NCBI RefSeq assembly: GCF_041886205.1
Contig: NZ_CP169029.1
Origin: Escherichia coli
GTDB lineage: Bacteria > Pseudomonadota > Gammaproteobacteria > Enterobacterales > Enterobacteriaceae
Reading direction: 5' to 3' (one strand)
Length of the DNA: 64,000 bases
Shown here: positions 10,578 to 10,635 of the stretch, one piece after another
Position numbering within the stretch: the first letter of the stretch is position 1
How the letters are laid out: each line of letters starts with the position of its first letter
Notes under the pieces: generated by a model
Database searches by the model: none
Told to the model about the DNA's origin: nothing
The model's input: only the letters and a program-made list of their open reading frames with translations
Program-made: the position numbers and the translations under genes

Positions 10578-10593
10578 CTGTATAAAACCACAG
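10578..10593. promoter_or_regulatory. LexA (SOS) box upstream of polB
   Basis: ctgtataaaaccacag fits CTGT-N8-ACAG; polB/dinA is a known SOS gene. Confidence 0.7.
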
Positions 10594-10605
10594 CCAATCA
10601 AACGA

Positions 10606-10635
10606 AACCAGGCTATAATCAAGCCTGGTTTTTTG
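10606..10635 (+). terminator. Rho-independent terminator after araD
   Basis: Stem aaccaggc / gcctggtt with 9-nt loop followed by a T-run. Confidence 0.7.

Follow-up and report, generated by a model that had tools for sequence, protein, structure and literature searches.

A known parallel to the araD-polB junction of Escherichia coli is the overlap of frdABCD and ampC in the same species, reportedly described by Grundstrom and Jaurin in 1982, in which the frd terminator is said to double as the ampC attenuator. The two arrangements are alike in that a downstream promoter overlaps the end of a co-directional operon and a single hairpin serves both units. They differ, however, in where the downstream transcript begins: ampC starts upstream of the hairpin and is thereby attenuated, whereas polB starts inside the 3' arm, so that the hairpin is escaped.

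A second group for comparison comprises the other SOS promoters, such as those of recA, uvrA, sulA, and dinB, which likewise carry one CTGT-N8-ACAG type box near the -35/-10 region and are damage-inducible. Unlike these, polB has a box that scores weakly by weight matrix and sits right next to the stop codon of a catabolic operon to which it is unrelated, and its -10 hexamer is embedded in a terminator.

The nearest relative is the polB (dinA) locus of E. coli K-12, with which the DNA analyzed here shares the box sequence, the 74-nt gap, the GTG start, and the hairpin. Three SNPs separate the two gaps, the notable one lying in the -10 hexamer (TATAAT here, TATACT in K-12). Primary papers published by Iwasaki and by Bonner in 1990 are said to have identified dinA as polB and to have described the box. 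A review places polB in the SOS regulon and notes that RpoS dependence has also been reported. At the junction studied here, the LexA-repressed polB (dinA) promoter is very probably interleaved with the Rho-independent terminator of araBAD on one and the same stretch of DNA.

Organization of the araD-polB junction

On the + strand of the window, a 64-kb stretch of the E. coli chromosome, lie araBAD, polB, and rapA. Of 5426 complete E. coli genomes, 5400 match a 401-nt query taken from around the junction, and araD and polB are annotated at the locus in RefSeq records that are 100% identical over this query. Across positions 10400-10800, only 7 of the 5400 matching genomes reach at least 99% identity over the 401 nt, most falling between 90 and 99%; the window thus belongs to one of the less common lineages of E. 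coli (strain C9-like). Positions were converted to K-12 coordinates as 76429 minus the window coordinate. BW25113 was checked for an ara deletion reaching the promoter, and its araD 3' end and gap are annotated as intact. The features of the junction are as follows.

9879-10574, + strand: araD, L-ribulose-5-phosphate 4-epimerase, last gene of araBAD (open reading frame list; RefSeq annotation of 100% identical records)
10578-10593, strand not applicable: LexA (SOS) box CTGTATAAAACCACAG (sequence; published polB LexA motif; conservation)
10591-10596, + strand: candidate -35-like hexamer CAGCCA, 3/6 matches (placed by its spacing, 17 nt upstream of the -10)
10605-10634, + strand: predicted intrinsic terminator of araBAD (hairpin energy, gap z, T-run, conservation)
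10606-10612, + strand: AACCAGG, hairpin 5' arm and conserved promoter spacer (conservation)
10614-10619, + strand: -10 hexamer TATAAT (K-12 TATACT) (conservation; mapped starts 7-8 nt downstream)
10626, + strand: polB transcription start (T), inside the hairpin 3' arm (K-12 65803; Kim et al., 2012)
10626-10648, + strand: polB 5' leader UGGUUUUUUGAUGGAAUUACAGC, 23 nt (sequence and mapped start)
10649-13000, + strand: polB, DNA polymerase II, GTG start, 783 aa (open reading frame list; RefSeq annotation)

The gap that separates the two genes spans 10575-10648, and both the sequence and the open reading frame list bear out the 74 bp given for it in a preliminary description of this DNA; the corresponding K-12 interval (65781-65854) is equally long. 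Read from the araD stop codon, the order is TAA (10572-10574), TGA, CTGTATAAAACCACAG (10578-10593), CCAATCAAACG, AAACCAGGCT (10605-10614), ATAATCA, AGCCTGGTTT (10622-10631), TTT, GATGGAATTACAGC, and the polB GTG (10649).

The LexA box

The box occupies positions -48 to -33 relative to the polB start at 10626 and therefore overlaps the -35 position. The preliminary description had recognized it as a CTGT-N8-ACAG element beginning 2 nt past the araD stop; the box itself stands, but the distance does not, since three bases (TGA) separate the stop codon from the 16-mer CTGTATAAAACCACAG, and a start 2 nt after the stop fits only the 20-mer form (10576-10595).

Motif statistics were abandoned as a case for the box. 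The bare CTGT-N8-ACAG pattern is not rare in the window (3 matches against 0.56 expected), and with a weight matrix built from 13 published LexA sites the box scores 6.97 bits, ranking only 16th in the window, with shuffled sequences scoring higher. By this small matrix, the polB box is a weak, non-consensus site. Such statistics are insufficient by themselves, and it is the invariance of the box in 81 Enterobacteriaceae sequences, together with the literature, that supports it. A UV tiling-array study gives ATGACTGTATAAAACCACAGCCAAT as the polB LexA motif; within the 100 nt that precede the UV-induced transcript of polB, the motif has index 54. This index puts the start of the UV-induced transcript near window position 10623, within about 3 nt of 10626. 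The box at 10578-10593 is thus the published polB (dinA) LexA box, and its control by LexA and induction by UV are taken from the literature.

Two further LexA-like candidates were considered in the window. A second half-site using the CCAG of the hairpin 5' arm was rejected, as its partner CTG, 10 nt upstream, would have to lie in the linker, which is not conserved. The best weight-matrix match in the whole window is TTTTGTTAATACAAACAGCA at 19175-19194 (14 bits); shuffled sequence reaches that range, so this match is probably due to chance.

The polB promoter and transcription start

A consensus promoter scan did not find a canonical promoter at the junction. The TATAAT hexamer, a perfect -10, takes its first base from the end of the hairpin 5' arm (T10614) and the other five from the 7-nt loop, and the -35-like CAGCCA overlaps the right half of the LexA box. 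Upstream of the hexamer, a GG dinucleotide at 10611-10612 (positions -15/-14) is invariant in 81/81 sequences, which suggests an extended -10-like contact that would compensate for the weak -35.

Mapped starts in three species agree on where this promoter fires. The supplement of Kim et al. (2012) lists a K-12 polB start at 65803, equivalent to window position 10626, with a 5' UTR of 23 nt; this start lies 7 nt after the TATAAT hexamer, inside the hairpin 3' arm, and the E. coli datum itself comprises 2 reads only. For Klebsiella pneumoniae, a table in the same paper gives a polB start 8 nt past TATAAT with a 5' UTR of 24 nt (Kim et al., 2012). A dRNA-seq table for Salmonella Typhimurium likewise places the primary polB start 8 nt past TATAAT, with a 5' UTR of 23 nt and 17-27 reads. 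From its start onward, the E. coli transcript shows no unusual structure (folding z = 0.10), and its leader contains a Shine-Dalgarno-like GGA at 10638-10640. The earlier expectation that the polB promoter must overlap the araD 3' end or its terminator is accordingly upheld: the -10 hexamer sits in the hairpin and the mapped start in its 3' arm, with the start at 10626 rather than upstream in araD under a different LexA site.

Kim et al. (2012) assigned to polB a second, weak start at K-12 65946 (window 10483), which lies inside araD and has 2 reads and a 5' UTR of 166 nt. Transcripts from this position would run into the terminator. Such a start is what would be expected of an attenuator of the frd-ampC type, in which most polB transcription would begin upstream of the hairpin, with 10483 as a possible start, and the hairpin would regulate polB. 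The starts tied to the conserved -10, however, fall inside the 3' arm in both E. coli and K. pneumoniae, the UV-induced transcript begins at about 10623, and the polB leader from 10626 is unstructured. Moreover, the sequence read upstream of 10483 contains no CTG-N10-CAG or other LexA-like motif, and the Salmonella promoter works at the same position with no hairpin present. Attenuation is already largely refuted by these observations, and we regard it as highly improbable.

The -10 hexamer is polymorphic at window position 10618 (position -8). A 41-mer with TATAAT occurs in 2403, and one with TATACT in 2931, of 5426 E. coli genomes, and both alleles recur across genera in the 81-sequence alignment. 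We take GCTATACT to fit a sigma-S type -10, and this fit may be related to the reported RpoS dependence of polB. Further downstream, the start of rapA (hepA) maps to window position 12841 (K-12 63588), inside the 3' end of the polB coding sequence, with 21 reads and a 324-nt leader (Kim et al., 2012), and is thus another overlap of neighboring transcription units.

The predicted araBAD terminator hairpin

Placed 30 nt past the araD stop and co-directional with araBAD, the hairpin consists of a stem (AAACCAGGCT at 10605-10614 and AGCCTGGTTT at 10622-10631) closed by the loop ATAATCA (10615-10621). The stem has 7-10 bp, including 5 G-C pairs, the loop has 7 nt, and a six-T run follows. The hairpin folds at -16.2 kcal/mol; the gap as a whole folds at -24 kcal/mol (z = -5.06), a value that none of 200 shuffles equaled. 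The T-run (10629-10634) is followed by 14 nt before the polB GTG, exactly the distance at which the preliminary description had an intrinsic terminator end.

A strict scan, in which terminal A-T pairs were trimmed and the remaining stem had to be perfect over 6 bp or more and be followed by at least 6 T in 8, found only three hairpin-plus-T-run sites in the 64 kb, the junction hairpin among them. The other two, at 59569-59587 (+ strand) and 50387-50369 (- strand), are presumably terminators of other operons. A stock terminator scan reported the junction hairpin on the - strand only, whereas our custom scan found it on both strands; the stock program misses the + strand form because the maximal stem takes up three T's of its tail. 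On the - strand (10608-10628), the same hairpin is terminator-like with the tail TTTCGTTT. No convergent gene needs it there, and it might stop antisense transcripts leaving polB.

Rfam returned no match in 10300-10900 at E values up to 1, and the 3'-end supplements read list no 3' end for araD, araBAD being uninduced or silent in those conditions. From the placement and composition of the hairpin, araBAD transcripts presumably terminate here. Covariation in the stem (0.084, against 0.090 in shuffles, with 85% of cells paired) reveals no compensatory changes, so the RNA structure is not independently proven by the alignment. The stem is instead kept as a fixed sequence, covariation being absent because the 5' arm is constrained as promoter DNA.

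Bringing together the sequence features, their conservation, and the starts mapped in three species, we propose the following course of events. A LexA dimer on the box would cover the weak -35 region and block RNA polymerase, presumably by occlusion, until RecA-stimulated LexA cleavage frees the promoter. RNA polymerase would then use GG-C-TATAAT as an extended -10-like element and start at 10626. Transcripts from PBAD would contain both arms (10605-10631) and the U-run, fold into the hairpin, and be released around 10632-10636, a few bases beyond the polB start. Transcripts of polB, by comparison, begin in the 3' arm; because this start leaves out the 5' arm, no terminator can form, and they would read into polB.

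Conservation across Enterobacteriaceae

With the first 300 residues of PolB as a query, 80 loci, one per species, were collected from Enterobacteriaceae. Alignment A1, which covers 221 nt and ends just inside polB, combines 79 of these with the window and K-12, giving 81 sequences. Invariant in 81/81 are CTGTA, CAG, the GG at -15/-14, T-A-T-A-n-T, and GTG; the box core as a whole reads CTGTA[TC]A[AT]A-N4-CAG throughout. Box and -10 stand 20 nt apart in 79 sequences and 21 nt apart in the other two, and the 11-nt linker between box and arm shows neutral identity (0.37-0.40).

Pairwise identity was then compared between 8 hairpin-less lineages and 67 hairpin-bearing sequences, with the following values.

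Neutral linker: 0.37 hairpin-less, 0.39 hairpin-bearing
3' arm core: 0.39 hairpin-less, 0.96 hairpin-bearing
T-run: 0.43 hairpin-less, 0.80 hairpin-bearing
Position -13: 0.46 hairpin-less, 0.97 hairpin-bearing
AACCA: 0.71 hairpin-less, 0.96 hairpin-bearing
LexA box: 0.87 hairpin-less, 0.88 hairpin-bearing
-10 hexamer: 0.93 hairpin-less, 0.96 hairpin-bearing
GG (-15/-14): 1.00 hairpin-less, 1.00 hairpin-bearing

Judged by these identities, the bases fall into three classes: those that would serve the terminator only (3' arm, U-run, and C-13), those of the promoter and operator (box, GG, and -10), and those that would serve both (AACCA). The AACCA at 10606-10610 forms the spacer from -20 to -16 and is kept in lineages that lack its hairpin partner (0.71, against 0.37 for the neutral linker), so it must do more than pair. 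A CCAGG (Dcm) site lies within this spacer region.

Retention of the hairpin and the upstream neighbor

Retention of the hairpin goes with the presence of araD next door. If araD is counted as adjacent whenever its end can be seen no more than about 130 nt from the box, 50/51 araD-adjacent loci have an intact hairpin, compared with 17/30 of the others (Fisher p = 3e-6, in a test that ignores relatedness). Where other genes have come to lie between araD and polB, most lineages show only neutral identity in the 3' arm and T-run. The Salmonella subspecies and several Citrobacter carry a DUF4751 gene there on the opposite strand, and in several other genera the place is taken by a DUF218 gene that is co-directional or by one of unknown family. 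In the locus set, the opposite-strand DUF4751 gene is seen in L010, L014, L006, and L023 (at about 925-1680) and the co-directional DUF218 gene, of about 210 aa, in L011, L027, L042, and L066 (at about 1260-1950). In L027 and S. Typhimurium, the upstream open reading frame appears to run over the LexA box.

The polB promoters of Salmonella, Phytobacter, and Pseudocitrobacter illustrate the separation of the two functions. They have the same box, 20-nt spacing, and GG-N-TATAAT as the E. coli locus, and the Salmonella start position is the same as well; in contrast, their 3' arm is scrambled and no terminator is present, with DUF4751 or DUF218 genes standing between araD and polB. An unchanged Salmonella start next to a lost hairpin means that the promoter does not need the hairpin.

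Not all loci follow the rule. P. gergoviae (L073) has lost the hairpin with araD adjacent, and L027, L042, and S. Typhimurium have lost it with DUF218 directly upstream and co-directional, which indicates that a co-directional neighbor does not always require it. The constraint on the hairpin therefore probably reflects the very strong inducible araBAD promoter, not co-directionality as such. No convincing alternative terminator was found upstream of the box in the hairpin-less loci L042 and L027, and L037, also hairpin-less, has one weak terminator candidate inside its upstream open reading frame.

The same comparison bears on a different view of the repeat, namely that a dimeric regulator would bind AACCAGGC-N7-GCCTGGTT as a DNA operator over the -10, and that the repeat is not an RNA terminator. 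A perfect inverted repeat of 8-10 bp centered on the -10, fixed in sequence and devoid of covariation, would suit such a role, as would the partial conservation of the AACCA half when its partner is gone. Yet the repeat is preceded by an A-run, is followed directly by a T-run, and stands right past the last stop codon of an operon; furthermore, where araD is not the neighbor, loss of the second half-site goes with loss of the T-run and the promoter still works, although a dimer operator needs both halves. We consider an operator very unlikely and retain the interpretation of the repeat as the araBAD terminator.

Insulation or coupling of the two transcription units

The preliminary description had also proposed that this compact arrangement links SOS control to the end of the ara operon. 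What the sequence and the literature support is physical adjacency only. It is conceivable, if unlikely, that PBAD transcription across the LexA operator and the polB promoter modulates Pol II and that the arrangement thus goes beyond insulation: LexA could be dislodged or the terminator could leak, raising Pol II in arabinose, or the promoter could be occluded, lowering it. The geometry would allow this, given that every araBAD polymerase should cross the box and -10 and stop 6-10 nt past the polB start, and araD lies next to the box in an old, widely shared arrangement, with the araD stop 0-12 nt from the box in many genera. Set against it, the literature yielded no expression data; in many lineages, genes or REP-like DNA have come to separate araD from the box with the promoter unchanged, which argues against a selected link; and strong conservation of the 3' arm points to selection for termination that is efficient and so insulates.

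In Klebsiella, Raoultella, Enterobacter, and their relatives, the LexA box is separated from the araD stop by this REP-like DNA, which is GC-rich and palindromic. Such insertions were seen in L036, L038, L044, L046, L051, L052, L056, L059, L062, L067, L078, and L079 (columns 190-330 of alignment A1); they measure 18-91 nt, exceed 100 nt in some loci, and leave box and hairpin untouched.

An evolutionary version of the coupling idea would have the terminator built on the promoter: the 5' arm (AACCAGGC) would be a constrained promoter element, the araBAD terminator would have evolved as its complement, and arabinose catabolism would measurably alter Pol II expression. We hold this to be unlikely. 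If true, a PBAD polymerase crossing the LexA operator and stopping just past the polB start would change Pol II through interference, LexA displacement, or leak-through, and cross-talk between the carbon source and the level of an SOS polymerase, not described so far, would follow. A literature search for the promoter-in-terminator geometry at araD-polB, for an effect of arabinose on polB, and for read-through found nothing relevant.

Biological significance

The arrangement is the classical polB/dinA promoter and, as such, essentially already known, because all of its elements are public and the geometry follows from published coordinates. As an interleaved promoter and terminator, it offers a clean, textbook-style case in which one stretch of DNA would be operator, promoter, and terminator at once with no cross-talk, by virtue of a start set inside the 3' arm. 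It is also of modest evolutionary interest: bases specific to the terminator (3' arm, T-run, and -13) can decay freely after araD has ceased to be the neighbor, and the promoter-specific bases are fixed across the family. In practical terms, the last 70 bases before polB hold the whole SOS-regulated promoter, which matters for editing of the araBAD locus, including deletions, integrations at the araD-polB junction, and PBAD constructs.
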